In this document: positions 523 to 15,131 of the stretch, in pieces
Layout: each line of letters opens with the position of its first letter
How positions within the stretch are numbered: position 1 is the first letter of the stretch
From: a virus
Taxonomy: Duplodnaviria; Heunggongvirae; Uroviricota; Caudoviricetes
IMG/VR virus record: IMGVR_UViG_2540341016_000013
Reading direction: 5' to 3' (one strand)
DNA length: 26,426 nt
Notes under the pieces: model-generated
What the model was told of the DNA's origin: nothing
Seen by the model: only the letters and a program-made list of their open reading frames with translations
Databases searched by the model: none
Program-made: the position numbers and the translations under genes

Positions 523-545
523 ATCAGTAAGTTGGCAGCATCACC
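523..545. repeat. IS1 terminal inverted repeat (insA-proximal end)
   Basis: Sequence atcagtaagttggcagcatcacc is the reverse complement of the IS1 terminal IR; host sequence starts at 546. Confidence 0.85.
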
Positions 546-1309
546 CAAAGCCCTGACGATCAACATCGACCATTACGGTGGCATTCGGTTTATTGCCTGT
601 CAGATAATAATAATCAACAACCGTCATACCCTGGGTATATTTCCCCTGTGTTTCCACGCCAACCCAGCGCTCAACAGAGGTAAATAACTCCGGTTTCAAC
701 AGCCAGGCGATGGTGCATGGGTCATGCAGTGGTGCGCCGACAAAGCCCCATTTTTCGTCTTTATGATATTCGAGGAAGAAATCCAGCAGTTCGGCAACAA
801 TGGTTGAAACAGGGTTGCCAATCGCGCGGAAACGCTCAGTGTCTTCAACGTGGATTTGTGCTTTGTGAGTAACATCCAGACCGGCCATCACCACCGGGAT
901 CCCTGACTGGAAGACAATTTCTGCCGCTTCCGGGTCAACGTAAATATTAAATTCAGCCGCAGGCGTCCAATTACCCAGCCCCATTGCGCCGCCCATAATC
1001 ACGATACGGGCAATTTTGCTATGCAGTTCCGGATGGCTATTGAGCAGCAAGGCAACGTTAGTTTGCGGTCCGGTAGACACAATCGTGACAGGTTCCGCAC
1101 TTTCGCGCAGCGTTTTCGCCATCAGCTCTACCGCCGTACAGTTTTGCGGTGCGAACGTCGGTTCCGGTAATGCCGGGCCATCCAGACCGCTTTCGCCGTG
1201 CACATTGTCCGCGATAATCAACTCACGCATTAACGGTTTTACCGCACCGCCTGCTACCGGAATATCGGTGCGATTAAGCAAGGTCAGCATACGCAGAACA
1301 TTGCGTAAG
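546..1309 (-). pseudogene. rihA: IU-nucleoside hydrolase family gene fragment (RihA-like), truncated at both ends
   Basis: ORF 541-1290 translates to a ribonucleoside hydrolase with the GPQTN motif. Its C-terminus ends ...DVDRQGFG then a TGA supplied by the IS1 terminus. Upstream of 1309 the frame stays open but lacks the N-terminal DxDPGxDD calcium-binding motif, so the 5' end is also missing. The rihA paralog assignment is from memory. Confidence 0.7.
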
Positions 1310-1387: not shown

Positions 1388-1960
1388 TTACATTTCAGGT
1401 TGCGTTATGACAGTCCCAACAGGGTGATAGCGGTAGATCGTTGACAGTCCAATATCATAGATAATTGCCAGCCGCTTTCTGTCATACCCTTTCTGGAGCA
1501 ATCTTGCGATCTGCTCATGCTGCTCCTTCGTCAGTTTCGGGCGACGTCCTCCAACTCTTCCTTGTGCTCGCGCAGCAGCCAGTCCTGCCAGCGTGCGCTC
1601 AACTATCAGTTCACGCTCCATTTCTGCCAGTGCACCCATCATATGAAAAAAGAACCTTCCCATCGGAGTGCTGGTATCGATTGAATCCGTCAGACTGCGA
1701 AAATTGACACCTTTTGCGCGTAGCTCTTCTGTGAGAGCAATGAGGTGTTTCATTCTTCTACCCAACCGATCCAGCTTCCAGACCACCAATGTATCCCCTC
1801 TTTTAAGGCACTTTAAAGCGCGTTTCAGGCCTGGTCGTTCCGACTTGGTTCCGCTCATTTTGTCCTCAAAAATCTGTTCACATCCTGCGCACATTAATGC
1901 ATTGCGTTGCAAATCTATGTTTTGGTCATTTGTTGACACACGTATGTAGCCAATCAGCAT
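1388..1960 (-). CDS. Serine DNA invertase (Gin/Hin/Cin/Pin family)
   Basis: [22 protein letters not shown]...[10 protein letters not shown]...[21 protein letters not shown] is a resolvase/invertase catalytic domain with a C-terminal HTH. Start taken at the internal ATG 1958-1960, which has an AAGGGAG SD; the longer ORF N-terminus looks like out-of-gene read-through. Confidence 0.9.
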
Positions 1961-2014
1961 TAAAAATACTCCCTTTTGAGTGGTTAAAGTACTGAGATAA
2001 TGTGGGGAGGATTT

Positions 2015-2040
2015 GAGAGATAAACGTTGGTTTGGGGGAA
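2015..2040. other. Left recombination crossover site (hix/gix-like) of the invertible segment
   Basis: Reverse complement TTCCCCCAAACC-AA-CGTTTATCTCTC; the shared half TTCCCCCAAACC plus AA core resembles the hix/gix half-site (AAACC-AA-GG). Sits at the outer boundary of the left inverted repeat. Confidence 0.5.
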
Positions 2041-2226
2041 GGCTCTGCATTGCCTGTTGGTGTACCGGTTCCATGGCCCACCGCCACACCGCCAGCAGGC
2101 TGGTTAAAGTGCGACGGGCGCGCCTTTACAAAAGAACAATATCCTGTTCTGGCCAGAGTCTACCCGACCCTCCGTCTTCCCGATTTACGCGGTGAGTTTA
2201 TCCGTGGATGGGACGACGGGCGCAAA
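2027..2226. repeat. Left 200-bp inverted repeat of the invertible tail-fiber segment
   Basis: Identical by eye to the reverse complement of 3445-3644; encodes GEGSALPVGVPVPWPTATPPAGWLKCDGRAFTKEQYPVLARVYPTLRLPDLRGEFIRGWDDGRK in both copies. Confidence 0.85.
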
Positions 2227-2544
2227 GTTGATACAGGACGTAAGTTGCTGTCCGCACAAGGGGCAACGCTGTTAAGAACAGCAATGCTGGATTATTATAA
2301 CCAGGACACTACGGGAACCTCGGGGATAGTCGGCATGGGATTCAACAATGAAGATTCCATTACAGACCTTCGTGAGGGCAGCTTTAAAATGCCGGACGGG
2401 ACAACATTCAGCGATCCTGTCGTGGCAATGTCAGACAATGGTATGCAGGCTACTATTCTGACCTCTATCAGAAGCGGGTATGCGAAGGGTATCACTGTCA
2501 GACCCCGTAGCATTGCACTTAATTACATTGTGAGGGCAGTTTAA
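2032..2544 (+). CDS. Alternative tail-fiber C-terminal cassette (Sv-prime), promoterless in this orientation
   Basis: Frame opens inside the left IR with no genuine start (the listed M is TTG); after the shared IR-encoded region it diverges into a distinct C-terminal domain ending ...IALNYIVRAV; stop overlaps the tfa start (TAATG). Confidence 0.7.
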   Translation: MGEGSALPVGVPVPWPTATPPAGWLKCDGRAFTKEQYPVLARVYPTLRLPDLRGEFIRGWDDGRKVDTGRKLLSAQGATLLRTAMLDYYNQDTTGTSGIVGMGFNNEDSITDLREGSFKMPDGTTFSDPVVAMSDNGMQATILTSIRSGYAKGITVRPRSIALNYIVRAV

Positions 2545-3158
2545 TGAGTAACACTGCAGTTCTGGATGAAAACGGTATCGCCACTGTAGCGGGCGATATC
2601 ACTGTATATCACTATGACGAGGAAACCCGGGAATACACCTCATCCTCTGTGGAGTATCTCGCCCTTGGGGTGGGTACTCCGGCACATTCGTGCGCCGATG
2701 CACCGCCGGAGGCAATTTCGGGTTACGTGGTTTGCCGGACTGCCACGCTGAACGGGTGGGAGCATGTGCCTGATCACCGCGGCGAGACGGTATACAGCAC
2801 GGAGAACGGTAACCCTGTTCTGATTACCCAACCGGGTGATTACCCGGCGGACACCACCACAAAACAGCCAGCCACGCCATGGGATACCTGGAACGGTGAG
2901 GCGTGGGTAACCGATACTGAACGGCAGCGAGCCGCAGAACTGGAGGTTGCCAGACAGCAACGCCAGCAACGGGTGAAACAGGCGATGGCGTCAGTCGATC
3001 TTATCAACCTCAAACTGCGTGCTGGTCGCAGTCTGACACCAGAAGAAACGGCAAAACTGAACGCCGTGCTGGATTATATCGACGAGCTGAACGCACTGGA
3101 TATCAGCACGGCACCTGAAATCAGCTGGCCGGAAGCGCCACTGGCACTTGCCAGTTGA
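2544..3158 (+). CDS. Tail fiber assembly protein (Tfa/U-like chaperone)
   Basis: 204-aa ORF directly coupled to the Sv-prime cassette; N-terminal MSNTAVLDENGIATVAGDITVYHYDEETREYT resembles phage Tfa chaperones. Confidence 0.75.
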   Translation: MSNTAVLDENGIATVAGDITVYHYDEETREYTSSSVEYLALGVGTPAHSCADAPPEAISGYVVCRTATLNGWEHVPDHRGETVYSTENGNPVLITQPGDYPADTTTKQPATPWDTWNGEAWVTDTERQRAAELEVARQQRQQRVKQAMASVDLINLKLRAGRSLTPEETAKLNAVLDYIDELNALDISTAPEISWPEAPLALAS

Positions 3159-3164
3159 ACGGTA

Positions 3165-4456
3165 TCACGCCGCCCTCACGATATAGTTAAACGCGATATT
3201 GCGGGGGCGGGTTATGTTAAAGAATGCTCCGTTTAATTCGGCTTTTGCGCGACTGTTTGTTCCACCCAGAATTACGTACCACAAATAATCGCTACGGTAA
3301 TTCCCCGCAAACACCTTATCGCCGCCATAGTCAATATTATTTCCGTTACTCATGTACGAGATATCAAGCGAAGAATCGTTATCGTCATGACCGCCGACCA
3401 GTGTACCTTTCTGCCATGAAAGCAACTTACGCCCCTCGTCAATCTTGCGCCCGTCGTCCCATCCACGGATAAACTCACCGCGTAAATCGGGAAGACGGAG
3501 GGTCGGGTAGACTCTGGCCAGAACAGGATATTGTTCTTTTGTAAAGGCGCGCCCGTCGCACTTTAACCAGCCTGCTGGCGGTGTGGCGGTGGGCCATGGA
3601 ACCGGTACACCAACAGGCAATGCAGAGCCTTCCCCCAAACCAAGGTAATTGAGGACATCTTTTATACTGCCCTTAGCGATAATAGCGCGACCAATAGCTG
3701 TAAGGGTTGCCAGCGCTGCGCGGTCTGCTCCGGTAAAATAAGGCAACCGATCTGCTGCAGTGGCAAGTCCTGCCAGAGCAGTGAGCGTGGCATCTGCCGG
3801 TTGTTTTCCGTTTGCCAGATCGTATGCAGCCTTGACCGCTTTCGGTGTGGCGGCCAGTATTTCAGACGTGCTGTTGATGGCACTGCTCAGTTGTACGGTG
3901 CCTTTTGCCGTCAGCGAGGCAGCAGGCACTCCCGTTATCTGACTCCACGGGTGAGTGTGGCTGACGGGCGCCTTGCCGGCTGCAAGGTCGTATGCAGCCT
4001 TGACCGCCTTCGGCGTGGCAGCCTCAGTTTCTGATTGACTGTCCGTGGCGCTGCTCAGTTGTACGGTGCCTTTTGCCGTCAGTGAAGCCGCAGGCACTCC
4101 CGTTATCTGACTCCACGGGTGAGTGTGGCTGGCAGGCGCCTTGCCGGCTGCCAGGTCGTATGCAGCCTTGACCGCTTTTGGTGTGGCGGCCAGCGTTTCA
4201 GAGGTGCTGTTGGTGGCACTGCTCAGTTGGGTGAACCCCTTAGCTGTCAGTGTCGCGTCCGGGTGGTTACGGGAACGTACGTGTTCAGCCAGTGACTGTG
4301 CGGCTTCCTCCGTTTTCTTCTTCAGCCATTTCGTCCTGTTTGCCAGTTGCCGGGGGCTCGATTTGATATCCCGTCTGCACCACCCAGAACCGGATCTGAT
4401 GTCTCCAGTTGATAGATATTTTCTTCCCACTTTTCTGTTTCATTCAGGTTTCCCAT
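3165..4456 (-). CDS. Tail fiber protein (P2 gpH / Mu S-like), currently fused to the Sv cassette; apparently frameshifted near the N-terminus
   Basis: ORF 3165-4430 has P2 H-like shaft repeats and a C-terminus ...NIAFNYIVRAA. The only ATG with coupling to the upstream gene is at 4454-4456 (MGNLNETEKWEENIYQLETSDPVLGGADGISNRAP...), which is one frame off and joins the long frame at a 5-nt homopolymer (4352-4356). Confidence 0.8.
3445..3644. repeat. Right 200-bp inverted repeat of the invertible segment
   Basis: Reverse complement matches 2027-2226; lies inside the expressed tail fiber gene. Confidence 0.85.
3631..3656. other. Right recombination crossover site (hix/gix-like)
   Basis: TTCCCCCAAACC-AA-GGTAATTGAGGA; the AAACCAAGGT core matches the hix-type centre as I recall it; at the outer boundary of the right IR. 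Confidence 0.5.
3783..4247. repeat. About 2.8 tandem 168-bp (56-aa) repeats in the tail fiber shaft
   Basis: cgtatgcagccttgaccgc recurs at 3821, 3989 and 4157 (period 168); protein repeats TAKG(F/T)(T/V)QLSSA...AATPKAVKAAYDLAAGKAP(A/V)SHTHPWSQITGVPAASL. Confidence 0.8.
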
Positions 4457-4458
4457 AA

Positions 4459-5037
4459 TCAACTGCTCCCGTGGTTATAACTGCCATCATGGATGGCGGT
4501 ATTGTTATAGCGAATGGCCACAGACTGATACTCCAGGCTGGCCAGATGGCAGCGGGCCGGTGCAAATGCAGCCAGCGTCTGACGCAGCATCGCGGCCTGA
4601 TCGTTAGTAATGGGCTGTTTCAGAATAACGCGATAAACTGCCCAGGCGGCTGCATCTCCATGAACAAACAGTCCGTTATAGCTGCGATTGCCGTCGTAAC
4701 TGAGACGACCTGTGCCTTCAATCAGATCCACTTCACCAAAGCCAAAACGGCGGATAACTTCCCGGATTGACCACGGCGTCCCTTTATACCGGTGCAGTTC
4801 GATGGCTGCTTTTATAAGCATGCGGCGAACATCGTCCGATTCCGCCAGCTCCCAGCCATCGCCAGACAGTGAGAACTGCTCGCCCAGCCATGGCAGCGCG
4901 GAACTGTCGACGATATCGACGAGAAAGACCATCAGTACGCTCAGGTCGATGTTATCCAGCCGTCCTGCCAGTCTTCCCAGCGTCCTGAGACTGATATCAC
5001 CCTCAAGCGGTGGCGGGAGTTGTAATGGCTCAGTCAT
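4459..5037 (-). CDS. Baseplate/tail protein I-like (P2 gpI family)
   Basis: 192 aa, position between the J-like and fiber genes; N-terminal MTEPLQLPPPLEGDISLRTL pattern fits gpI. Confidence 0.75.
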   Translation of the reverse strand: MTEPLQLPPPLEGDISLRTLGRLAGRLDNIDLSVLMVFLVDIVDSSALPWLGEQFSLSGDGWELAESDDVRRMLIKAAIELHRYKGTPWSIREVIRRFGFGEVDLIEGTGRLSYDGNRSYNGLFVHGDAAAWAVYRVILKQPITNDQAAMLRQTLAAFAPARCHLASLEYQSVAIRYNNTAIHDGSYNHGSS

Positions 5038-6133
5038 CAGACACTCCAGTCATGTTAAGAGTGATTGCCGTACAGTTTGCCCATTCGTTTTCTGCCACCA
5101 CCCGCAGTGCCGGTGTCACCAGTTCAACCTGGTACACCCCGGAAACGGACAATGCACTGATAATCTGGCTGGGGACAATATCGCGCCCCAGCGTGGCGGC
5201 ACGTGATGCCACCCAGTTCTGTATGGCGCTGTTAGCGGCATCTTTTACAGACCTGGCATCCTGATCACGATAGATCGTAATCCTGGCTTCAATGGTGTAA
5301 TCCACCTTCACTGGTGTTTTAGCCCGCACTGTATCAGTGAGTGGCCTGACTTTCTCATCAGAGCAGAAACTCTCTACCAGCGTGAGAACACCGCCGTCCG
5401 GCAGACCGGTACTGAGCAGCGGATACAGATCTACGGTCCCGGGAACCGGGGAAAGCACAGCAACATCGACAATGTTGGGATGGGCCTGCATGGCATGAAA
5501 GCGGTATGCGCCACGGCTTCCGGCATTGGTGAATGACTCCGGGGCCAGCCTGATACGCTCCCGGAGCCTGTCATCGTCTTCCTGTTCTGAACCGCCGGAA
5601 CTGGCCGTCAGATTGCTCACCAGCAGGTCGACGTTATCAATCTCATCGAGTAACTGACTGACCTGCGCAGGTTGCCAGCCGTTACCAGCGGTACCGGGTT
5701 CGGTACAGGTGGACGTGACATTGACCAGCAGCAATCCGGCCTTCAGTACCACATCTGTATCGGTGGCAAAAATAACGCTGTCGGAAGCGCTGACGCGGGT
5801 GCCTGCCGGGATCAGCACATCAATGGCCAGTGCCTCATCTACGGAGAACTGGAGCGTGGTGGTGGCAGGCTGCGCGGCAAGACGGTATACACCAACCAGT
5901 TCACCGAGGTAATCAATCATCGGCTCACGGGCAAAGGCGACCAGATTCTGCTTTGCTGCCTCCTGTACCGCAACCCTGACCAGCATTTCGCGATAGGCCC
6001 ACAGATCAATCAGCAGACGTTCTGCCTGTGCCGGGTACAGCGTTTTGCCGGTATCCGCTTCATACTTCGCAATCATTTCTGCCGTAATTTTGTCGGCATC
6101 GCGTTCAATAAAATCGGGTTCTGTCAGCGCCAT
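5030..6133 (-). CDS. Baseplate assembly protein J-like
   Basis: 367 aa, between the W-like and I-like genes as in P2/Mu baseplate modules. Confidence 0.8.
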   Translation of the reverse strand: MALTEPDFIERDADKITAEMIAKYEADTGKTLYPAQAERLLIDLWAYREMLVRVAVQEAAKQNLVAFAREPMIDYLGELVGVYRLAAQPATTTLQFSVDEALAIDVLIPAGTRVSASDSVIFATDTDVVLKAGLLLVNVTSTCTEPGTAGNGWQPAQVSQLLDEIDNVDLLVSNLTASSGGSEQEDDDRLRERIRLAPESFTNAGSRGAYRFHAMQAHPNIVDVAVLSPVPGTVDLYPLLSTGLPDGGVLTLVESFCSDEKVRPLTDTVRAKTPVKVDYTIEARITIYRDQDARSVKDAANSAIQNWVASRAATLGRDIVPSQIISALSVSGVYQVELVTPALRVVAENEWANCTAITLNMTGVSDD

Positions 6134-6525: not shown

Positions 6526-7122
6526 TCAGTGGGAGTGGTGGCTGGAGTTTTCGCCATCAGACAACATACTGCCCGTGGCATGGGCATTCCCTTTAATCTC
6601 GATATTGCCATGGATGGTCGCGGTAACACCTTCACCACCAGAACCCGCCATGCCTCCTTCGTAAATCAGCTTACCCCTGACACGCAGATCTCCGGTAAGT
6701 TCGGTTTCCGGTGCGTCAATCGTGGCTTTCTGTGTTTTCAATACCACATCAGCACCACACTCAATGACAATATGCTCAATGCCGCCCCGGATGGTCAGAG
6801 TGTGCGTCTTCCGGTTGTAGCTGTACTCTGCACCATCAGCAAACCGGGTTCCCCGGATATTTTTGTCACTGAACGGTGGTTTATCGACGTCTGAATACAC
6901 CGCGCCCAGAATAACACCATCCTCGCCGTTGGCATCGAGCAGCACCTCAACCTGCTCCCCCACGTCAGGGAGCCAGTAATCTTTGTTATCCTGGGTATTG
7001 CGCTGCAGCACGTTAAGCCAGTTTGTGCGCAGGTTATCGCATTCAGGCAGACGAACGCGGGCCTGAACCCTGTCGGCATCAACGGCACTGACCGTACCGA
7101 CCTGACGAGTGACACCAGTCAT
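6526..7122 (-). CDS. Baseplate spike protein V-like
   Basis: 198 aa; size and position match gpV/Mu gp45; Gly-rich C-terminal region. Confidence 0.75.
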   Translation of the reverse strand: MTGVTRQVGTVSAVDADRVQARVRLPECDNLRTNWLNVLQRNTQDNKDYWLPDVGEQVEVLLDANGEDGVILGAVYSDVDKPPFSDKNIRGTRFADGAEYSYNRKTHTLTIRGGIEHIVIECGADVVLKTQKATIDAPETELTGDLRVRGKLIYEGGMAGSGGEGVTATIHGNIEIKGNAHATGSMLSDGENSSHHSH

Positions 7123-8273
7123 TTTTTCTTCTCCTTAATCACCGTCGATGTACTGCCATCCGGGTGATAAACCGTGAGTTTCTGAGTTTTTTGTTTTTTC
7201 CCTCTTGTGACTGGCCCCCGTGCCACTTCCAGCTCTGTGGTGTAGCCGCTGTTACGGTCAAACGCATGGCGGGCAGTGGTTATGAGCCATGGCCCGGATA
7301 ACTGCCCAAAACCCACCAGTTCAATTTTGTTGCCTGCTGTCAGTTGAGGTGTTCCCGTCAGCGTCAGGGAGCCGTTCTGCTGGTATTCGTTATGTCTGGC
7401 CAGTGCTGAATCCGCTTTAATCCGGGCACTGTCCGGGTCGCTGACGCGGCTGTTAACTTTAAGTGAGTCAGCGCTGGTAACCTTACCACCTTTGAGCTTT
7501 TTGTCGCTTTCACGGGTACCACCATCAGCTTCGTAGACGATCAGTTTTTTACTGCTGCTTTTCTGGTGTTTTACCTTTGCAGATTTATAGACCCGGTTGA
7601 TGGTGTCACGCAGGGAAAAGCGGGCCACATCCTGCGGTTTTAACTGCCTGACCGGCTCCTGACTGCGCAGTGTGGCCAGATGAGAAAAAATCAGCTGGTC
7701 ACTGACCACTTTCACTGCATAACCATACTCGCTGGCCAGCCGGCGCAGAAAACCCACGTCGGTTTCAGCATACTGGGTCACCCGGTCGATTCTGATGGAC
7801 TCAATGCTGCCCACCAGTTTCAGTCGGTGCTTTCTGGCAATCCGCCCCGCAACAGCTGCCAGCGTGGTGTTCTCAAAACCACGACTGGTTTTAGTCCGCA
7901 GGGCACTGTTAACCGAGGTGGCCACCCCACGGATAGAAACAACGGAAGCGGGCGAACTCACTTCGATCTCGTCTATAGAGAACGTACCGCAGGACAGCAG
8001 CTTCTCGCCCTGATAGCCCATTTTCAGCGTCAGCGTGTCACCCTTGCCCGGATACCACTTATCCAGCCAGCGGCCATCGGTGTCGTCCAGCTCCACCTCA
8101 ATGGTATCGGACTCATTTTTGATGTTATCGCTCCAGGTCACACGGGTGACATAAGGCGCGATATCAGAGGTGATGTTTTTCTGCAGATACCACAGAGTGA
8201 ACACCGGTGTCAGCACATCGCTGACGCCGGTTAACGCTGATGTGACTTGCGCAGTGCTGTTTATCTCAGCCAT
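7119..8273 (-). CDS. Tail protein D-like (late control D / baseplate hub family)
   Basis: 384 aa, located between the X-like and V-like genes. Confidence 0.7.
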   Translation of the reverse strand: MAEINSTAQVTSALTGVSDVLTPVFTLWYLQKNITSDIAPYVTRVTWSDNIKNESDTIEVELDDTDGRWLDKWYPGKGDTLTLKMGYQGEKLLSCGTFSIDEIEVSSPASVVSIRGVATSVNSALRTKTSRGFENTTLAAVAGRIARKHRLKLVGSIESIRIDRVTQYAETDVGFLRRLASEYGYAVKVVSDQLIFSHLATLRSQEPVRQLKPQDVARFSLRDTINRVYKSAKVKHQKSSSKKLIVYEADGGTRESDKKLKGGKVTSADSLKVNSRVSDPDSARIKADSALARHNEYQQNGSLTLTGTPQLTAGNKIELVGFGQLSGPWLITTARHAFDRNSGYTTELEVARGPVTRGKKQKTQKLTVYHPDGSTSTVIKEKKK

Positions 8274-8476
8274 GGGGCAATATCCTCTTCTGTACGGGCT
8301 TCTTCAGCCTCAATCACCGGGATCAGTAACAACAGCCCGGAGGGCAGCACCGGCGTGATGGCCACGTGCGGATTGGCGGCAATAATCCGGGGATAGCCCA
8401 GCGGGTCACCGTAGTACTGCCATGCCAGCGAATCCCAGCGCTCTCCGTCACGGGTAACATGTTCAAGAAACATCAC
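8261..8476 (-). CDS. Tail protein X-like (small LysM-like tail protein)
   Basis: 71 aa, MMFLEHVTRDGERWDSLAWQYYGDP... resembles the P2 gpX family; placed between the U-like and D-like genes. Confidence 0.6.
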   Translation of the reverse strand: MMFLEHVTRDGERWDSLAWQYYGDPLGYPRIIAANPHVAITPVLPSGLLLLIPVIEAEEARTEEDIAPWLR

Positions 8477-9357
8477 ACACTCCTCGTCAGTATTCTGGCG
8501 GCCATTGCACTTAATCCCGGAGACATGCGGTTGAATGCTGTTCCGACGGCGTTAAGCTGCCCGGAAACGGTATCCAGAGCACCTGCAATATTTCTTTTGT
8601 CCACACCACTCAGCGCAGACTGTGCCTGCTGTACATACGTGGCTGCTTCGCTGGCTGTTCTGGCCAGACTGATGGCATCGGGCATGGATTCAGAGAGTGC
8701 GTTAAACGCCGGAACACTTTTCCCCAGAGCCCCGGAGATATTACCCAGTCCGCTCATCAGCCCCGGCACACGGGTCAGTGCGACAACGGGGTTATCCTTC
8801 ATTTTCTGTGTCACCCGAACGGCGCTGATAGTGGTCTGGAGTACAGACTGCGCCTGTTTCGCATAGTTGACGCCGTTGCGGATGAACTGCGCCACCCCGG
8901 AAGGTGAAGGAATGGCACCGGAGACCGCCCCGACACCCGGGAGCTTCGTGCGTATTGCCGGTGGTTGCAGAGGATTTTTCGGGTCACCGGTGTATTCCCG
9001 GAGAGACACGGTGGCACTGACAGCCAGCACGTTGCCGATACTGTCAGTCTGCTCGCTGGTTGCAGTCACATCGGTAATCACGAACCAGCCGCGATAGTCA
9101 CCGTTGCCGAAGACCAGCGCCAGTGCCTGATGGGCTTTCATGGCTGTTCGCAGTCTCGCCAGCTCCACATCGGGTACACAATAATGCTGATGGAAAACCA
9201 GAGTTATCTGGATTTCGTCCAGCCTGTCGCCGACGAACTGCAGGCCAGGCTTACCCCCGATGCGGGCATGCTCCGCATAATCGACGCCGAACGTGGCCTC
9301 GAAGCCGTCCCAGTAGGTAATCAGCTCAAACTCAATATCACCCAGTACGGCAAACAT
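8473..9357 (-). CDS. Tail protein downstream of tape measure (gpU-like / DNA-circulation N-domain-like)
   Basis: 294 aa; start overlaps the tape measure stop; assignment by position and N-terminal MFAVLGDIEFEL pattern. Confidence 0.6.
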   Translation of the reverse strand: MFAVLGDIEFELITYWDGFEATFGVDYAEHARIGGKPGLQFVGDRLDEIQITLVFHQHYCVPDVELARLRTAMKAHQALALVFGNGDYRGWFVITDVTATSEQTDSIGNVLAVSATVSLREYTGDPKNPLQPPAIRTKLPGVGAVSGAIPSPSGVAQFIRNGVNYAKQAQSVLQTTISAVRVTQKMKDNPVVALTRVPGLMSGLGNISGALGKSVPAFNALSESMPDAISLARTASEAATYVQQAQSALSGVDKRNIAGALDTVSGQLNAVGTAFNRMSPGLSAMAARILTRSV

Positions 9358-12308
9358 CAGCGGTACTCCTTACGTTGTTTCTGAGCAAGCAGACGCTCCA
9401 GCATTTTTTCCAGCTCATGCAGACTCATATTCAGGGCCCCAGTCAGTCCTGCAGGCGCTGTGGTTTCCCTGCCATTGAGGAAAAACTGAGGATTAAAGCT
9501 GACCTGGATACCACCAGACGTTCCACCGCCGGTTGCAGCTGCACCACGGCCTGAATATCCGGCAGCCAGGATTTCAGGCGAGGGGATACGGGGAACATCC
9601 GGTGTCATCTCATTTGCCAGACGTTGCCCTGGTAAAATCGATGCCCGGGTGGAGAGCGGAATAGCGGGCATGGAAGACAAACTATTGATTACGGCTCCGA
9701 TCGCATTTTTAGCAGACGACATAAACCCATTGATATCGGGCAACGGCATACTGAAGCGAACACCTGAAGTGTTATCCCGTATTTCTGGCCCCTGAATGCT
9801 CACGGGCATTTTGGGGAGCAGTTCACTGGCCATTCGCTGCCCGGCCAGAGCTGCAAGCGGAGTGGTCCGCTGCAGGCCAATGGCGGCCCCCTGCGCGATA
9901 TTGTCACCAAAGCCCATAAACACGCGGCTCGGCGAATGAATGCCCAGCTTTTCGCTGAACCAGCCACTGATGCTGTCGCCCATTCCGGTTACACTGGATT
10001 TGAGCGACTCCCATTTGTTTTTGATACCGTTAATCAGACCATCGACAAGATGGCCACCGAAGTCGGTAAACTTTGCCGGCAGATCAACACCAAGATATTT
10101 CAGCGCAGCTGCAAAGGCTTTATAGAGCAGACCTGCCGGCGACCAGTTAATCAGCAGCTTACCAGTTCCCGCGATACCGCCGTTAAAGGCTTCCTGAATG
10201 TCAGCCCAGCACTGTTTAAACCAGCTACTGATGCTGTCACCCATTCCGGTTACACTGGATTTGAGCGACCCCCATTTGTTTTTGATACCGTTAATCAGAC
10301 CGTCGATAAGATGGCCACCGAAGTCGGTGAACTTTGCCGGCAGAGTAACGCCGAAATATTTCAGCGCAGCCGCAAAGGCTTTATAGAGCAGGCCTGCCGG
10401 CGACCAGTTAATCAGCAACTTACCAGTTCCCACAATGCCGCCGTTAAAGGCTTCCTGAATGTCAGCCCAGCGCTGTTTAAACCAACCACTGACAGCCCCC
10501 CAGTTGCGGTAGATAAGGTAAGCTGCTGCCGCGACAGCGGTGATAACGAGACCGATGGGATTCATCATCAGCGCTCGCCCAATCCAGAGAACGGCACGTG
10601 CAGCGCTCATAAAACCGCGAACGAGGCTGCCCGCCAGAACTTTGCTGAGTTTCAGTCCTCCGCTGGTCAGTCGGCTGAATCCAGTGACAAGCCAGCGTAA
10701 TTTGCCACCTTCTCCGAGTGCGGTAGTCAGTCGATGCCAGTTGGTCCGGAGTAAAACAGCATTTTTCCAGACACTTACAAAGGGGGAAATAAGGAGATTC
10801 AGCCCCAGTTTGAGACCAACAGTCGCTATCTTAATCGCAAGGAGCGCACTGATGAGCTTAAAAGCCCCACTGACAAATTGCGGGTGAGTCGCTACCCAGT
10901 GTTTTGCCCCCTGAATGAGTGGAAGCAGTTCCTGAGTCAAAGAAATAAAAGATGGAGCTAATTGATCGCCCAGCGTAATTGCCAGATCGCGACTGCTGAC
11001 CATAAGTGTTTTAGTGGCTTCAAGGGGGGATTTCAGTCGCTGATCGTAAGCACTGGCAAGCAAATCGTTATCCGCAGCCCTGAGAGCACCGGCACGGATC
11101 TCTCGATATCTGTCCATGTTGGCCAGCATCGGGCGGATAAATGCCATGACCTGCATATCCGCGAACATATCACCCAGACCAAAGTTTTTCGCCAGAGCCT
11201 GAAGTGCCTCATCTCTTGCCGTATCATTCTTTATTTTCATGGCGGATTTGAAGCCGGCCAGCGCTTCGGGGCTTTTGGCATTGAGGTAACGTTCTATAAC
11301 ACTCAACATCCCTTCAATCGGAGAGATCCCCGCAGCCTTATAACTCGCAATAGATCCCTGCAAATCAATACCCAGATCAGCAAACTGTTTCTGAGTATCG
11401 CGGGCAAAAATTTTGGTAAGAAAGTTTTTAAAATTATTGGCTGCTTCGTCGGTGGAACCTGCACCGATTTTTGCTATCTGGAGACTGGCCCCGATTTCAG
11501 CAACAGCCTCTTTTCCACTGGCAATACCCGCCATCATTGGGGCCAGGGACTGCATCCACTTGACCTGATCCGGGATTTCAAATGACCCCTGGTCACCGGC
11601 ATAAGCCATAATATTCTGAACGGCACCAAAATCTCTGGCCGCACCTTTCAGGGAGTTTTGCCAGACTGCGGCCACTTTTGCCCAGTCCTGAGCAGACGTG
11701 CGTGTTGCCGTTGCCGCGCGGGCAATATCCGGCATCAGAAAACCGATATCTGACACATTATCAATATTGTCGCTGATGAGTGAACCCACCGCCTCCTGCA
11801 GCTCATCCTGATACTGATTGTATTTAAGCGCCCAGCCTTTTATCTGTCCGGCAAGTGCATCCCGCGTTTTATTGTCATATTTTGCGGTGATCGACATATC
11901 AATCATTTTGTCCTGAAAAGACATGGACTGCTGAACGGCAGGGGAAACCGTATGATAAACAGTCTGTGCCATGCCATACGCTTCAATCCCCTGACCATAC
12001 AGCGCCATGCGGTTAGCTTTCAGCGCATCACTGGTAGCGGATGCCGCTGACAGACGGCGCTGCTGGCGCTCAATTTGCTCCATGGTGCGGCTTACCCGCA
12101 GCAGCTCGCTGTTGAGATGCTGCATCCGGGAAGAACCCAGTTGACCATAACGTTCTGTTGCACGGGTTAAAGCGTTCTGACGTTCCTGCAGGCGGCGTGA
12201 GGTATCGCTCAGGGAATCAAGCGCACGGCGGGTACCGCTCATTGCAGAACGGAATGTGCTGCCAATCATCCCGCCGATAACAACGCCGACTGAAAACTGT
12301 CCCGACAT
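9357..12308 (-). CDS. Tail tape measure protein
   Basis: 983 aa, Ala/Gly-rich with hydrophobic segments and predicted coiled-coil N-terminus; GGAGG SD upstream of the ATG at 12306-12308; follows the chaperone genes. Confidence 0.85.
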   Translation of the reverse strand: MSGQFSVGVVIGGMIGSTFRSAMSGTRRALDSLSDTSRRLQERQNALTRATERYGQLGSSRMQHLNSELLRVSRTMEQIERQQRRLSAASATSDALKANRMALYGQGIEAYGMAQTVYHTVSPAVQQSMSFQDKMIDMSITAKYDNKTRDALAGQIKGWALKYNQYQDELQEAVGSLISDNIDNVSDIGFLMPDIARAATATRTSAQDWAKVAAVWQNSLKGAARDFGAVQNIMAYAGDQGSFEIPDQVKWMQSLAPMMAGIASGKEAVAEIGASLQIAKIGAGSTDEAANNFKNFLTKIFARDTQKQFADLGIDLQGSIASYKAAGISPIEGMLSVIERYLNAKSPEALAGFKSAMKIKNDTARDEALQALAKNFGLGDMFADMQVMAFIRPMLANMDRYREIRAGALRAADNDLLASAYDQRLKSPLEATKTLMVSSRDLAITLGDQLAPSFISLTQELLPLIQGAKHWVATHPQFVSGAFKLISALLAIKIATVGLKLGLNLLISPFVSVWKNAVLLRTNWHRLTTALGEGGKLRWLVTGFSRLTSGGLKLSKVLAGSLVRGFMSAARAVLWIGRALMMNPIGLVITAVAAAAYLIYRNWGAVSGWFKQRWADIQEAFNGGIVGTGKLLINWSPAGLLYKAFAAALKYFGVTLPAKFTDFGGHLIDGLINGIKNKWGSLKSSVTGMGDSISSWFKQCWADIQEAFNGGIAGTGKLLINWSPAGLLYKAFAAALKYLGVDLPAKFTDFGGHLVDGLINGIKNKWESLKSSVTGMGDSISGWFSEKLGIHSPSRVFMGFGDNIAQGAAIGLQRTTPLAALAGQRMASELLPKMPVSIQGPEIRDNTSGVRFSMPLPDINGFMSSAKNAIGAVINSLSSMPAIPLSTRASILPGQRLANEMTPDVPRIPSPEILAAGYSGRGAAATGGGTSGGIQVSFNPQFFLNGRETTAPAGLTGALNMSLHELEKMLERLLAQKQRKEYR
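9958..10497. repeat. In-frame tandem duplication (2 copies of 261 bp plus a partial third) inside the tape measure gene
   Basis: cattccggtt recurs at 9981 and 10242 (offset 261 = 87 codons); protein units WFKQ(R/C)WADIQEAFNGGI(V/A)GTGKLLINWSPAGLLYKAFAAALKY... repeated; 57/60 identity over the one 60-nt stretch I compared. Confidence 0.85.
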
Positions 12309-12383: not shown

Positions 12384-12560
12384 CTATGATTTGTCGCCGT
12401 ACTCGCTTTTGATTTGCTCTTCAGCCTGCTCCAGCCACATCTCCAGATCGTCAGTATCGAGGGCATCAATCTCCCCCGGCTGAAACCGGAACCATCTCGC
12501 CAGCAGCCCCTGCGCCTGCGTCAGCGCCCTGGTTGCTCTCACCCATCCCCGTGATGAGCT
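12384..12560 (-). CDS. Putative frameshift extension of the tail assembly chaperone (GT-like C-terminal part, +1 frame)
   Basis: Overlapping frame is open across the chaperone 3' end and encodes an acidic protein-like tail ...GEIDALDTDDLEMWLEQAEEQIKSEYGDKS ending 76 nt before the tape measure start; no independent ATG/SD. The 5' boundary is arbitrary because the slip site was not identified. Confidence 0.35.
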   Translation of the reverse strand, partial: SSSRGWVRATRALTQAQGLLARWFRFQPGEIDALDTDDLEMWLEQAEEQIKSEYGDKS

Positions 12561-12801
12561 GAAATCGTTTCTGTAACTGCAGGTAATCAGCCAGATCCAT
12601 ATTGTCGAGATCCTCCGGGAGAAGACCAGTACTGCGGGCAATCAGCGGTTCGTCCCAGTCTGCCGGGTTTTTGCTGATTTTGCGCACCTGCTTCAGGTCT
12701 TTTACCGTCAGGCGTTTCAGTTCAACCAGCTCAATTCTGGTGCCTGCAGCAGTGGTGAAGGGATAAGACAATTTAAAAGTATCGGATGGGGTCTGTGACA
12801 T
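12466..12801 (-). CDS. Tail assembly chaperone (G-like) upstream of tape measure
   Basis: 111 aa; AGGAG SD 8 nt upstream of the ATG at 12799-12801; position between tube module and tape measure. Confidence 0.65.
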   Translation of the reverse strand: MSQTPSDTFKLSYPFTTAAGTRIELVELKRLTVKDLKQVRKISKNPADWDEPLIARSTGLLPEDLDNMDLADYLQLQKRFQLITGMGESNQGADAGAGAAGEMVPVSAGGD

Positions 12802-13182: not shown

Positions 13183-13704
13183 TCAGCCCCCGATATTGAT
13201 ACGGTAGTCAGTCAGTTGATCAACACCGCCGACCCGGAAGATGTTGGCCAGATAGTCCAGTTGCAGCAGCTCTTCACCATCCAGTACCTGTCTGATATAC
13301 GTGCAGGTGAAGCTACTGGAGAACTCGGCGTTCTCGTGCTGTTTGAACGTCCCCAGCGGGTTCTTCTTGAACATAATCGTCAGGAAGGTGACCAGCGGGA
13401 TTTCGTCAATCAGCCCCTGCGAGCTGTAGCGCTGGACGCTGGAACGACACTGCAGTGCCAGCGACCTGTACGGGTTCGCGGCAGACAGCATCGCATCGCG
13501 GTAAAAGCTGTTCCATTTGATTTCGCCTTCCAGTTTGTCAAAACCAGCCGGGAGTTCCACCTTACCCACCATCCCCAGCGCCTTGTGTTCCTGCATAATC
13601 ATGGAGACATCGGGGAGTTTAACTTCCTCAGCCCGTCCCAGCAGGTTAGTACCATCCAGATAGATGTTGGCATTCGTGATGCGGTTTATCTCAATCTTTG
13701 ACAT
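13183..13704 (-). CDS. Tail tube protein
   Basis: 173 aa; ATG overlaps the sheath stop (ATGA); canonical sheath-tube order. Confidence 0.8.
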   Translation of the reverse strand: MSKIEINRITNANIYLDGTNLLGRAEEVKLPDVSMIMQEHKALGMVGKVELPAGFDKLEGEIKWNSFYRDAMLSAANPYRSLALQCRSSVQRYSSQGLIDEIPLVTFLTIMFKKNPLGTFKQHENAEFSSSFTCTYIRQVLDGEELLQLDYLANIFRVGGVDQLTDYRINIGG

Positions 13705-15131
13705 CAGTTGCCCCCTTTCAGGGTTAACAGGTATTCCGAGGTGATCTCAGTCTCAAACGTCAGTCGCTCCAGCGGCGGTGGTGGCGTATATTTGTAGCTC
13801 AGCAACAGGTGCCCGGCGGCCAGCTCCGTCTCCGGATTGCGGGCCGGATCAAACCAGCAACGGAAGCCCAGTACCGCACCATCACCAGTCATTTTGCGAC
13901 CGTAGGCGTTGACCGACTCCGTCAGTGCATCAATCAGCGCCTGAGTAATCGGCATGTCGATGTACTGCTGGCTGAAATAACGAATGGACTCGTTGATCAC
14001 ATCACCGGTGCGGCGAACGTTCTCAAAGTTACGCATATGGGTGACCGTTGGCCATGCTGCCGTCCGGTTACCCCACAGACGAAGGCCGCTGCCGTAACTG
14101 CTGAATACCGTGGTGATCCCCTGTTCGTTAAGCAGGTTCACCTCACTCTGCGGGTCATCAATCATCGCGGACAGCTGGCGCTCCACGCCGGTGATCCCCA
14201 GAATCTCCTGATTGGAGGATGACCACCAGTAGCCCTTGTCCAGATCGACTCTGGCACGCAGACCTGCTGCACGCTGGCTGAGCGGCTCCAGACGCTCTGT
14301 GTTTGTCACCGGGTCATATACCTTCACATGCGGATAGCACAGACGGACGCGGTCGGAGCTGGTATTGAAGTTGATGGTGCCTTCCGGGCCACGACCTGCC
14401 AGAGCCTGTGCAAAGGTGGTACCGACAGGCGCATCAATGTAGGTTACCGCGCCCAGCTTCTCTGCCATGGCGATAAGCTCAACTGCGACACTCTTCTGGG
14501 TGCAGAACACCGGCGCAATCAGAATTTTGGCGAAATAGCCGTACAGGTTGAAGCTGTCGTTAAGCAGCTTCATGCCGGTTCGGTTTCCGGCGCTGTTCAC
14601 CCCGCCGATGATGTCCGCCGCAGTCACCTTCGACGGGTCCGCGTACTCATAGCTCACCTTCACGCTGCCACCGGCCTCAATAGCCTTGCCCAGGTTCGTG
14701 AGCACACCCGCCTGCGCATCAACACGGTAGTCCGTGTTCGCCGTGTGGGTGGTGCTGCCTTCACTGTTTTTCACCACCACATTAGCGACAACCGGATGCG
14801 CCAGTCTGGCCTGCCCTGTCGATTTGTCAAAGGTAACCACCTCATCCTCGATCGCCGTTTTATGTTTCGCCGGGTCGAGGACGTTAATGACCAGAACGGT
14901 GCCTGCACCATGGTCATAAATCGCATCCAGCGCCTGCGGAATGGTAAAGCCGGTGAACTGGCTGCCAAATGCCGCTGCGTCTTTCTCAGACAGGCACTGT
15001 ACCAGCGTATTGACATCCCCCATCGGGGCGGTACCAATCAGGCCAATAACGGCAGATTTCACCGTTTTAACCGGGCGGGCACCGTTTTCCACCTCAATGG
15101 TTTCGGGACCATGCAGATAGTTAGCTGCCAT
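13704..15131 (-). CDS. Contractile tail sheath protein
   Basis: 475 aa; GGAGG SD 8 nt upstream of the ATG at 15129-15131; size and position typical of Mu L / P2 FI-type sheath. Confidence 0.88.
   Translation of the reverse strand: MAANYLHGPETIEVENGARPVKTVKSAVIGLIGTAPMGDVNTLVQCLSEKDAAAFGSQFTGFTIPQALDAIYDHGAGTVLVINVLDPAKHKTAIEDEVVTFDKSTGQARLAHPVVANVVVKNSEGSTTHTANTDYRVDAQAGVLTNLGKAIEAGGSVKVSYEYADPSKVTAADIIGGVNSAGNRTGMKLLNDSFNLYGYFAKILIAPVFCTQKSVAVELIAMAEKLGAVTYIDAPVGTTFAQALAGRGPEGTINFNTSSDRVRLCYPHVKVYDPVTNTERLEPLSQRAAGLRARVDLDKGYWWSSSNQEILGITGVERQLSAMIDDPQSEVNLLNEQGITTVFSSYGSGLRLWGNRTAAWPTVTHMRNFENVRRTGDVINESIRYFSQQYIDMPITQALIDALTESVNAYGRKMTGDGAVLGFRCWFDPARNPETELAAGHLLLSYKYTPPPPLERLTFETEITSEYLLTLKGGN

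Follow-up and report, generated by a model that had tools for sequence, protein, structure and literature searches.

An in-frame 261-bp tandem duplication and its copy-number alleles in the tape measure gene of EC958 Phi2-type Escherichia coli prophages

How does a tail tape measure gene come to hold the same 87-codon module twice, does the number of modules stay fixed thereafter, and what might a change in that number mean for the tail? These questions are raised by a 26,426-nt stretch of DNA, referred to here as the window, from a virus of the Caudoviricetes (IMG/VR record IMGVR_UViG_2540341016_000013), in which the gene encoding a BcepMu-like Escherichia coli prophage's tail tape measure protein (TMP) contains two adjacent copies of a 261-nt unit. 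The explanation that we favor, and regard as clearly probable as a whole, has three parts: (i) a duplication in the ancestor of the prophage clade, (ii) later crossovers between the copies that would have given rise to alleles with one, two and three units and (iii) corresponding steps in tail length.

Anatomy, ancestry and age of the repeat

Tandem Repeats Finder detects one array, at positions 9958-10492 (period 261, 2.0 copies, 92% matches and zero indels), and a gap-free repeat finder aligns 9958-10218 with 10219-10479 at 93% identity, with 18 of 261 nt differing. The direct repeats ranking next in the 4-kb region span only 20-24 nt, and chance falls far short of explaining a 261-nt match at 93% identity. 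The copies stand head to tail with no spacer, their spacing being equal to the unit length of 261 nt. As 261 is 87 x 3, the TMP frame is kept and the open reading frame (ORF) of 983 aa, the sole long ORF containing the array, runs through it without stops. The protein reads ...NWGAVSGWF / KQRWADIQ...GDSISSWF / KQCWADIQ...GDSISGWF / SEKLGIHSPSRVF... across the array, where units A (the 5' copy in gene orientation) and B (the 3' copy) have 87 residues each and differ at 7 of them. The longest run of identity between the two copies is 34 nt. A first-pass annotation of this DNA had described an in-frame tandem duplication within the tape measure gene, and this description, two 261-nt units in an intact 983-aa ORF, holds.

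A plus-strand ORF that runs antisense to the repeat (9936-10700, 254 aa) was considered as the coding sequence and rejected. Between the copies it would carry 13 amino-acid changes versus 7 in the TMP frame, which has the fewest changes among all six frames (19 nt differences are counted in the codon-aligned register used for this comparison).

The edges of the units are informative as well. Directly upstream of unit A lies a 14-nt short direct repeat, GTCAGTGGTTGGTT, which encodes (V)SGWF and resembles the 14 nt that end each unit (10219-10232 and 9958-9971). Positions 10480-10497 had been taken at first pass for a partial third copy, but no truncated unit is present; the similarity is a 14-nt boundary microhomology that already flanks the single unit of the outgroups introduced below. 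A conserved SEKLGIHSPSRVF motif directly follows unit B. It is kept in Klebsiella phage KP12, in E. coli IAL7250 and in viral contig L098, and it is included in the larger duplications of contigs L098 and L110. The 87-codon module thus framed lies directly after a hydrophobic segment and directly before a conserved IHSPSR motif.

Every outgroup compared has one unit. The closest of them, Klebsiella phage KP12, Phi06_2974B and E. coli IAL7250, are ~85% identical at the nucleotide level and encode TMPs of 821-825 aa. Their unit stands at 86.6% identity to A as well as to B (KP12, IAL7250), as against 93% between A and B. More distant TMPs also have one unit, which is 54% identical to A in Burkholderia phage phiE255 (870 aa; a Bcepmuvirus that differs from the window in having a single unit), 55% in Ralstonia phage YO107_2 (901 aa) and 35% in the P2-like phage AP3 (1083 aa), and the family profile phrog_5690 matches the unit once. 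A single unit is present in 79 of 101 related loci drawn from IMG/VR and species-representative genomes. The 261-nt doublet occurs in 11 (every one in a TMP at least 97% identical to that of the window), three tandem units occur in 2 and two spaced units in another 2 (L098 and L110); one more (L046) is an artefact discussed below, and the remaining 6 are fragments without the unit. By this distribution the duplication is derived and lineage-specific, and it appears to have arisen in the ancestor of the EC958 Phi2-type clade of BcepMu-like E. coli prophages.

The divergence between the copies bears on the age of the event. Units A and B differ by 10 synonymous (Sd) and 8 non-synonymous (Nd) changes, giving dS = 0.19, dN = 0.041 and omega = 0.22, and the dS of the units against the outgroups is 0.45-0.52. 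When the 18 differences are polarized with three outgroups, 9 are derived in A, 7 are derived in B and 2 are ambiguous. Comparison of the window with the alleles of IAI39 and HN68, for which the 5' parts of the gene have a dS of ~0.10, places A 2-3 nt from A and B 2-3 nt from B, with A and B 19-20 nt apart. Because A and B are orthologous across alleles whose flanks have reached a dS of ~0.10, the duplication is older than the diversification of the clade, and both copies have been kept as coding sequence under purifying selection. The first-pass description of the duplication as recent therefore has to be given up, in view of the dS of 0.19, the derived changes in both copies and the orthology of each copy across alleles.

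Outgroups L002, L003 and L008 carry the short direct repeat GTCAGyrGyTGGTT (SxWF) at both edges of their single unit. Short direct repeats are a classic substrate for slippage or illegitimate recombination, and the 14-nt repeat was probably the substrate of the founding duplication. In the sequence of events that we propose, this repeat already bracketed the 87-codon module, slipped-strand or illegitimate recombination at it would have created the tandem duplication in the ancestor of the clade, and both copies would then have been retained as coding sequence under purifying selection while diverging to 7%.

The same part of the gene has been lengthened on other occasions. Contigs L098 and L110 belong to a ~50%-identical lineage and have independent, in-frame duplications with other boundaries that cover the unit and its flanks. 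In L098 (3020-4150) the duplicated block is 564 nt (188 aa) with identical copies in a TMP of 1009 aa, and in L110 (2950-4360) it is 705 nt (235 aa) with copies of ~89% identity in a TMP of 1056 aa. Specific to the window's clade is a 71-aa insertion in the C-terminal region of the TMP, with a GQRxAxE motif at each edge (a weak motif match); KP12, IAL7250 and L098 lack it. It makes a second and older lengthening of the gene. Taken with the L098 and L110 duplications, it indicates that this part of the TMP tolerates, or favors, stepwise lengthening.

Copy-number alleles, crossover signatures and assemblies

A survey of 5426 complete E. coli genomes found a TMP homologue in 636, with at least 80% of the gene covered in 464. 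Two units are present in ~450 complete genomes (by subtraction). The contiguous one-unit arrangement occurs in 68, of which ~16 are within the clade (at least 96% identity) and the remainder belong to the outgroup lineage. Three units occur in ~18-23% of hits (11/60 and 7/30 in two samples), or an estimated 115 genomes, roughly. This share is taken from aligned spans in samples spread over the hits, since the count given by a junction probe (573 at a coverage of at least 80%) is non-discriminating and joins two-unit pieces; all three examples of the three-unit class that were fetched have three units. The best 120 protein clusters fall into the same discrete length classes, 896 aa (28 clusters), 983 aa (42) and 1070 aa (17), the rest being mostly partial.

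The composition of the units in these alleles records how they were formed. The one-unit allele of JMK_KBN3987 (L004; TMP of 896 aa) changes from A-type (to unit position 87) to B-type (from position 108), as expected of the product of a deletion by unequal crossover between A and B. The three-unit allele of AVS0662 (L007; intact TMP of 1070 aa) has a middle unit that turns from B-type (to position 47) into A-type (from position 61), the reciprocal expansion product. Two further three-unit alleles (L005 and L006, likewise 1070 aa and intact) have the arrangement A'-A-B. Three-unit alleles are found in two allele lineages, Z0117 near the window and AVS0662 near IAI39, and are therefore the result of independent events.

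At the seven diagnostic residues, most one-unit clusters read "abbbbbb" or "aabbbbb": they begin as A at the 5' end, finish as B at the 3' end and include B-derived residues. None of the 28 has the outgroup pattern "aabbabb" at these residues. Because they are A/B chimeras and none has the outgroup pattern, the one-unit alleles within the clade are secondary collapses rather than survivors of the ancestral state. In the commonest class of collapse the crossover falls between unit positions 7 and 47, a span that holds the 34-nt longest identical run. The first-pass annotation had anticipated that the locus would be unstable in copy number through recombination, and the alleles with one, two and three units, together with the chimeric units that mark unequal crossovers, bear this out. 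We propose that the 261-nt copies have repeatedly served as substrates for homologous unequal crossover, which would have yielded the 896-aa one-unit A/B chimeras on the one hand and the 1070-aa three-unit alleles, with an A-like or a B/A middle unit, on the other.

Three other accounts of the array have to be weighed against this one. That it might be an artefact of the window's assembly is a reasonable concern for any repeat of this kind, and two records show how it can go wrong: the PhiKM record (L001, PQ738613) has an N-gap inside the array (L001:4915-5015), and IMG/VR contig L046 (4114-4223) presents a spurious seven-unit array. We rejected these "seven units" as a scaffold artefact, with N, an upstream junction re-used in mid-array and a broken frame. 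The two-unit form, however, is easy to assemble because A and B share no identical run beyond 34 nt, and the gene of the window, exactly 2952 nt, is recovered as a single aligned piece in 60/60 best hits and in 42/60 sampled evenly down the ranking. The same layout in hundreds of independent complete genomes, the PacBio reference EC958 included, leaves practically no room for an artefact. An ancient two-domain repeat common to the whole TMP family is scarcely more credible. All two-unit alleles in the clade do carry the same diverged A and B copies, as such a repeat would, but KP12, Phi06_2974B, IAL7250, phiE255, YO107_2, AP3 and 79/101 related loci have one unit, and the doublet is limited to the closest relatives of the window's TMP.

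The origin of the 7% divergence is a finer question. A and B could in part have differed before they were joined, or their divergence could have been lowered by gene conversion, and age estimates are therefore rough. Carried to its limit, this argument makes the duplication an unequal crossover between already diverged TMP alleles of co-resident or co-infecting phages, with most of the 7% present at birth, and dS = 0.19 could then greatly overstate the age of the event. The TMP alleles are indeed mosaic around the repeat: IAI39 and the window differ by a dS of 0.095 in the 5' 1830 nt and of 0.020 in the 3' 600 nt, a contrast that implies a recombination breakpoint in or near the repeat. Opportunity would also have been ample, as related TMP genes often occur several times per genome (median 2 places, up to 9). 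The near-even split of derived changes between A and B and the equidistance of the outgroup speak against it, although this pattern fits both models, and the 28 one-unit clusters, being chimeras, include no pure-A or pure-B single-unit allele from within the clade. Since A and B are orthologous across alleles, the event would still be older than the clade. We consider the joining of diverged alleles improbable, with a chance that is nevertheless appreciable, and prefer the divergence of two initially like copies after duplication in the clade ancestor.

The repeat also affects annotation. RefSeq (PGAP) calls the intact 1070-aa three-unit TMPs pseudogenes, "incomplete; missing C-terminus" (2501-5713 in each of L005, L006 and L007), and splits that of L007 into two partial features; the reading frames are uninterrupted. 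The pseudogene label on three-unit TMPs is an annotation artefact.

We also note TMPs 98-99% identical to the E. coli prophage in short, low-coverage contigs assigned to Arthrobacter (L014; L035 and L036, "Arthrobacter sp. Y81"). L014 (NZ_PJIO01000028.1, "Arthrobacter sp. GMC3") is the same 8241-bp contig as IMG/VR L043. These contigs most likely represent E. coli contamination of the assemblies.

Gene identity and prophage context

The tape measure identity of the gene is sound, given its match to PF10145 (PhageMin_Tail; E = 2e-20, 74 bits against a cut-off of 33.2) and its position between a gpE-type chaperone and gpU/gpD-type genes. It also matches phrog_28, phrog_794 and phrog_58, "tail length tape measure protein". 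The chaperone lies upstream, the gpU- and gpD-type genes lie downstream and the sheath and tube genes lie farther upstream, an order found equally in annotated relatives (Table 1). Baseplate genes and a tail fibre are also part of the module, and a Mu-type portal is encoded farther along. Hundreds of E. coli genomes have a gene annotated as "phage tail tape measure protein" with 99-99.8% identity to that of the window, including 99.0% for the ST131 reference strains EC958 and JJ1886; the nearest phage record is Escherichia phage PhiKM (Bcepmuvirus), at 98.3% over the TMP. The element is a BcepMu-like contractile-tail prophage with a P2/Mu-type tail module, matching EC958 Phi2.

Table 1. Features of the window discussed in the text
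Feature	Coordinates	Strand	Basis or remark
TMP gene, 983 aa, two-unit allele	9357..12308	-	ORF, PF10145, PHROG
Repeat unit A, 5' copy in gene orientation	10219..10479	-	TMP aa 611-697
Repeat unit B, 3' copy	9958..10218	-	TMP aa 698-784
14-nt short direct repeat (SGWF), directly upstream of unit A	10480..10493	-	junction table
Conserved motif directly after unit B	9918..9956	-	TMP aa 785-797; translation
Clade-specific 71-aa insertion, TMP C-terminal region	9630..9842	-	TMP aa 823-893; C-terminal alignment
PhageMin_Tail (PF10145) domain	11289..11834	-	TMP aa 159-340; profile match
gpE-type tail assembly chaperone	12466..12801	-	PF10109, E = 5.5e-21
85-aa ORF overlapping 3' part of chaperone gene, other frame	12384-12641	-	
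gpU-type tail protein, directly downstream of TMP	8473..9357	-	PF06995, E = 3.2e-38
gpD-type tail gene	7119-8273		
Tail tube gene	13183-13704		
Tail sheath gene	13704-15131		
Invertible tail-fibre segment	1388-3646		inverted repeat arms 2024-2252 and 3418-3646
Resolvase-type invertase	1388-2089		
Alternative collar-domain fibre end	2032-2544	+	
Tail-fibre assembly gene	2544-3158	+	
Inosine-uridine nucleoside hydrolase	541-1290	-	PF01156, profile positions 49-295 only

EC958 Phi2 and PhiKM belong to the same prophage type as the window, and the published account of Phi2 concerns its invertible tail-fibre segment, described by Forde et al. 2014 (PMC4134206), a paper in which the term "tape measure" is absent. 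The window has an inverted repeat of 229 nt and 96% identity, 5.7 kb from the TMP gene, in agreement with that description; its switch is 1623 bp, compared with 2067 bp in EC958 Phi2, and holds one assembly-protein gene only. A literature search for PhiKM returned phiKMV-type hits only, and no description or micrographs of PhiKM were found.

The nucleoside hydrolase gene that adjoins the invertase is a host gene, perhaps truncated at its N-terminus or starting farther upstream, and the prophage end is therefore placed near 1300-1390. At the other side of the TMP gene, relatives have a separate "GpE family" protein annotated at the place of the 85-aa ORF (L004 1285-1425). The arrangement of this ORF fits the programmed frameshift usual for tail assembly chaperones upstream of the TMP.

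Tail length and the meaning of the alleles

In tails of the P2 and pyocin type, the ring rise is about 3.8-4 nm. TMP length and tail length have been found to be related linearly, at about 0.146-0.15 nm per residue, with an earlier duplication of 29% in TP901-1 giving a tail ~30% longer (PMC5099701), and Katsura & Hendrix 1984 (lambda) and Abuladze 1994 (T4) are cited for the ruler principle in PMC13585406. On this scale each 87-residue unit would add ~13 nm, about three tube/sheath rings. The predicted ruler lengths are ~134, ~147 and ~160 nm for TMPs of 896, 983 and 1070 aa, so that the tails of neighboring allele classes would differ by this same step.

Several points weigh against so direct a reading. 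The length effect is extrapolated from other phages, and not every Phi2-type allele class need make particles. The unit is the most conserved segment of the TMP across genera, with the sole nucleotide-level matches to Burkholderia phages falling there, and its second half matches many TMP PHROG families. It may thus be a functional module beyond a spacer, with a contribution other than 0.15 nm per residue. It is also rich in Gly and Pro; an AlphaFold2 single-sequence model of the two-unit segment is mostly helical but, with a pLDDT of 38.6, is unreliable and uninformative. Finally, the one-unit L004 has two neighboring genes that are flagged as frameshifted or as having an internal stop. From these same observations, namely the conservation that suggests a specific function, the Gly/Pro content and the damaged genes beside the TMP of L004, one could argue that tail length responds little or not at all to an extra unit. 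Changes in copy number would then be neutral noise, the prophage being largely domesticated or in decay, or the module would fold compactly or serve membrane or DNA-channel functions. Against this view stand the omega of 0.22 between the copies, ORFs that are intact in all three allele classes, intact tail gene neighbors in the window and L005-L007 and a phage record, PhiKM, whose closely similar TMP has at least two units. It also runs counter to lambda, T4 and TP901-1, where in-frame length changes scale the tail, also outside recognizable repeats, and to the duplications of 188 aa and 235 aa that arose independently over this segment in other lineages. We regard the absence of a length effect as unlikely and retain stepwise lengthening as the preferred reading.

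A bolder extension of it treats the 87-residue module as a natural "quantum" by which tails grow. The alleles with one, two and three units, together with the 188-aa and 235-aa duplications in related phages, would then constitute a standing, selectively maintained tail-length polymorphism among contractile-tail prophages of pandemic E. coli. We put this forward tentatively, as a possibility that is rather less likely than not. If true, the polymorphism could tune penetration depth to the thickness of the envelope or capsule, and the alleles would form a near-isogenic series for testing how a non-integer ring length rounds to whole tube/sheath rings.

What the analysis shows for this locus is its anatomy, its polarity, its age relative to the clade, its polymorphism and its crossover signatures, whereas the founding mechanism and the effect on tail length are inferred. 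The changes made in lambda gpH (Katsura & Hendrix 1984), T4 gp29 (Abuladze 1994) and the TP901-1 TMP (Pedersen 2000; Mahony 2016, PMC5099701) are likewise in-frame and located between essential termini. They are laboratory constructs with proportional tails (~0.15 nm per residue), however, whereas the alleles with one, two and three units are natural and segregate in E. coli prophages. Belcaid, Bergeron & Poisson 2011 (PMC3271669; also Siponen 2009) described naturally occurring tandem units in TMPs, 11 or 18 residues long and carrying W/F markers. Like the repeat in the window, these vary in unit number, and their history of duplication and loss was rebuilt with divergent strains as outgroups. 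They differ in being 11 aa long and mostly from siphophages of Gram-positive hosts, in contrast to an 87-aa unit in a contractile tail of the BcepMu/P2 type. Neither Belcaid pattern 1 nor pattern 2 ([FW]-x10, at least 7 markers) matches the window TMP, nor does this protein have three aromatics at 11-residue spacing. The TMPs of myoviruses are reported to be typically without tandem repeats (PMC13585406). The locus thus adds a new and well-supported case to a familiar class of events, in-frame duplication within a TMP with dynamics of duplication and loss, and involves no new mechanism.

The practical consequence is that the repeat breaks or distorts assemblies, as in PhiKM and L046, and misleads NCBI annotation into pseudogene labels. 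The biological interest lies in the ruler itself. TMP length is the textbook determinant of tail length, on evidence that comes nearly all from engineered mutants, and the series of 896-, 983- and 1070-aa alleles is present in hundreds of sequenced E. coli, ST131 reference strains included. This series could be used for testing the ruler rule, as well as rounding to whole rings, in a contractile tail. The Phi2 prophage type, known from the pandemic ST131 clone and common in E. coli, probably has tails of three lengths.

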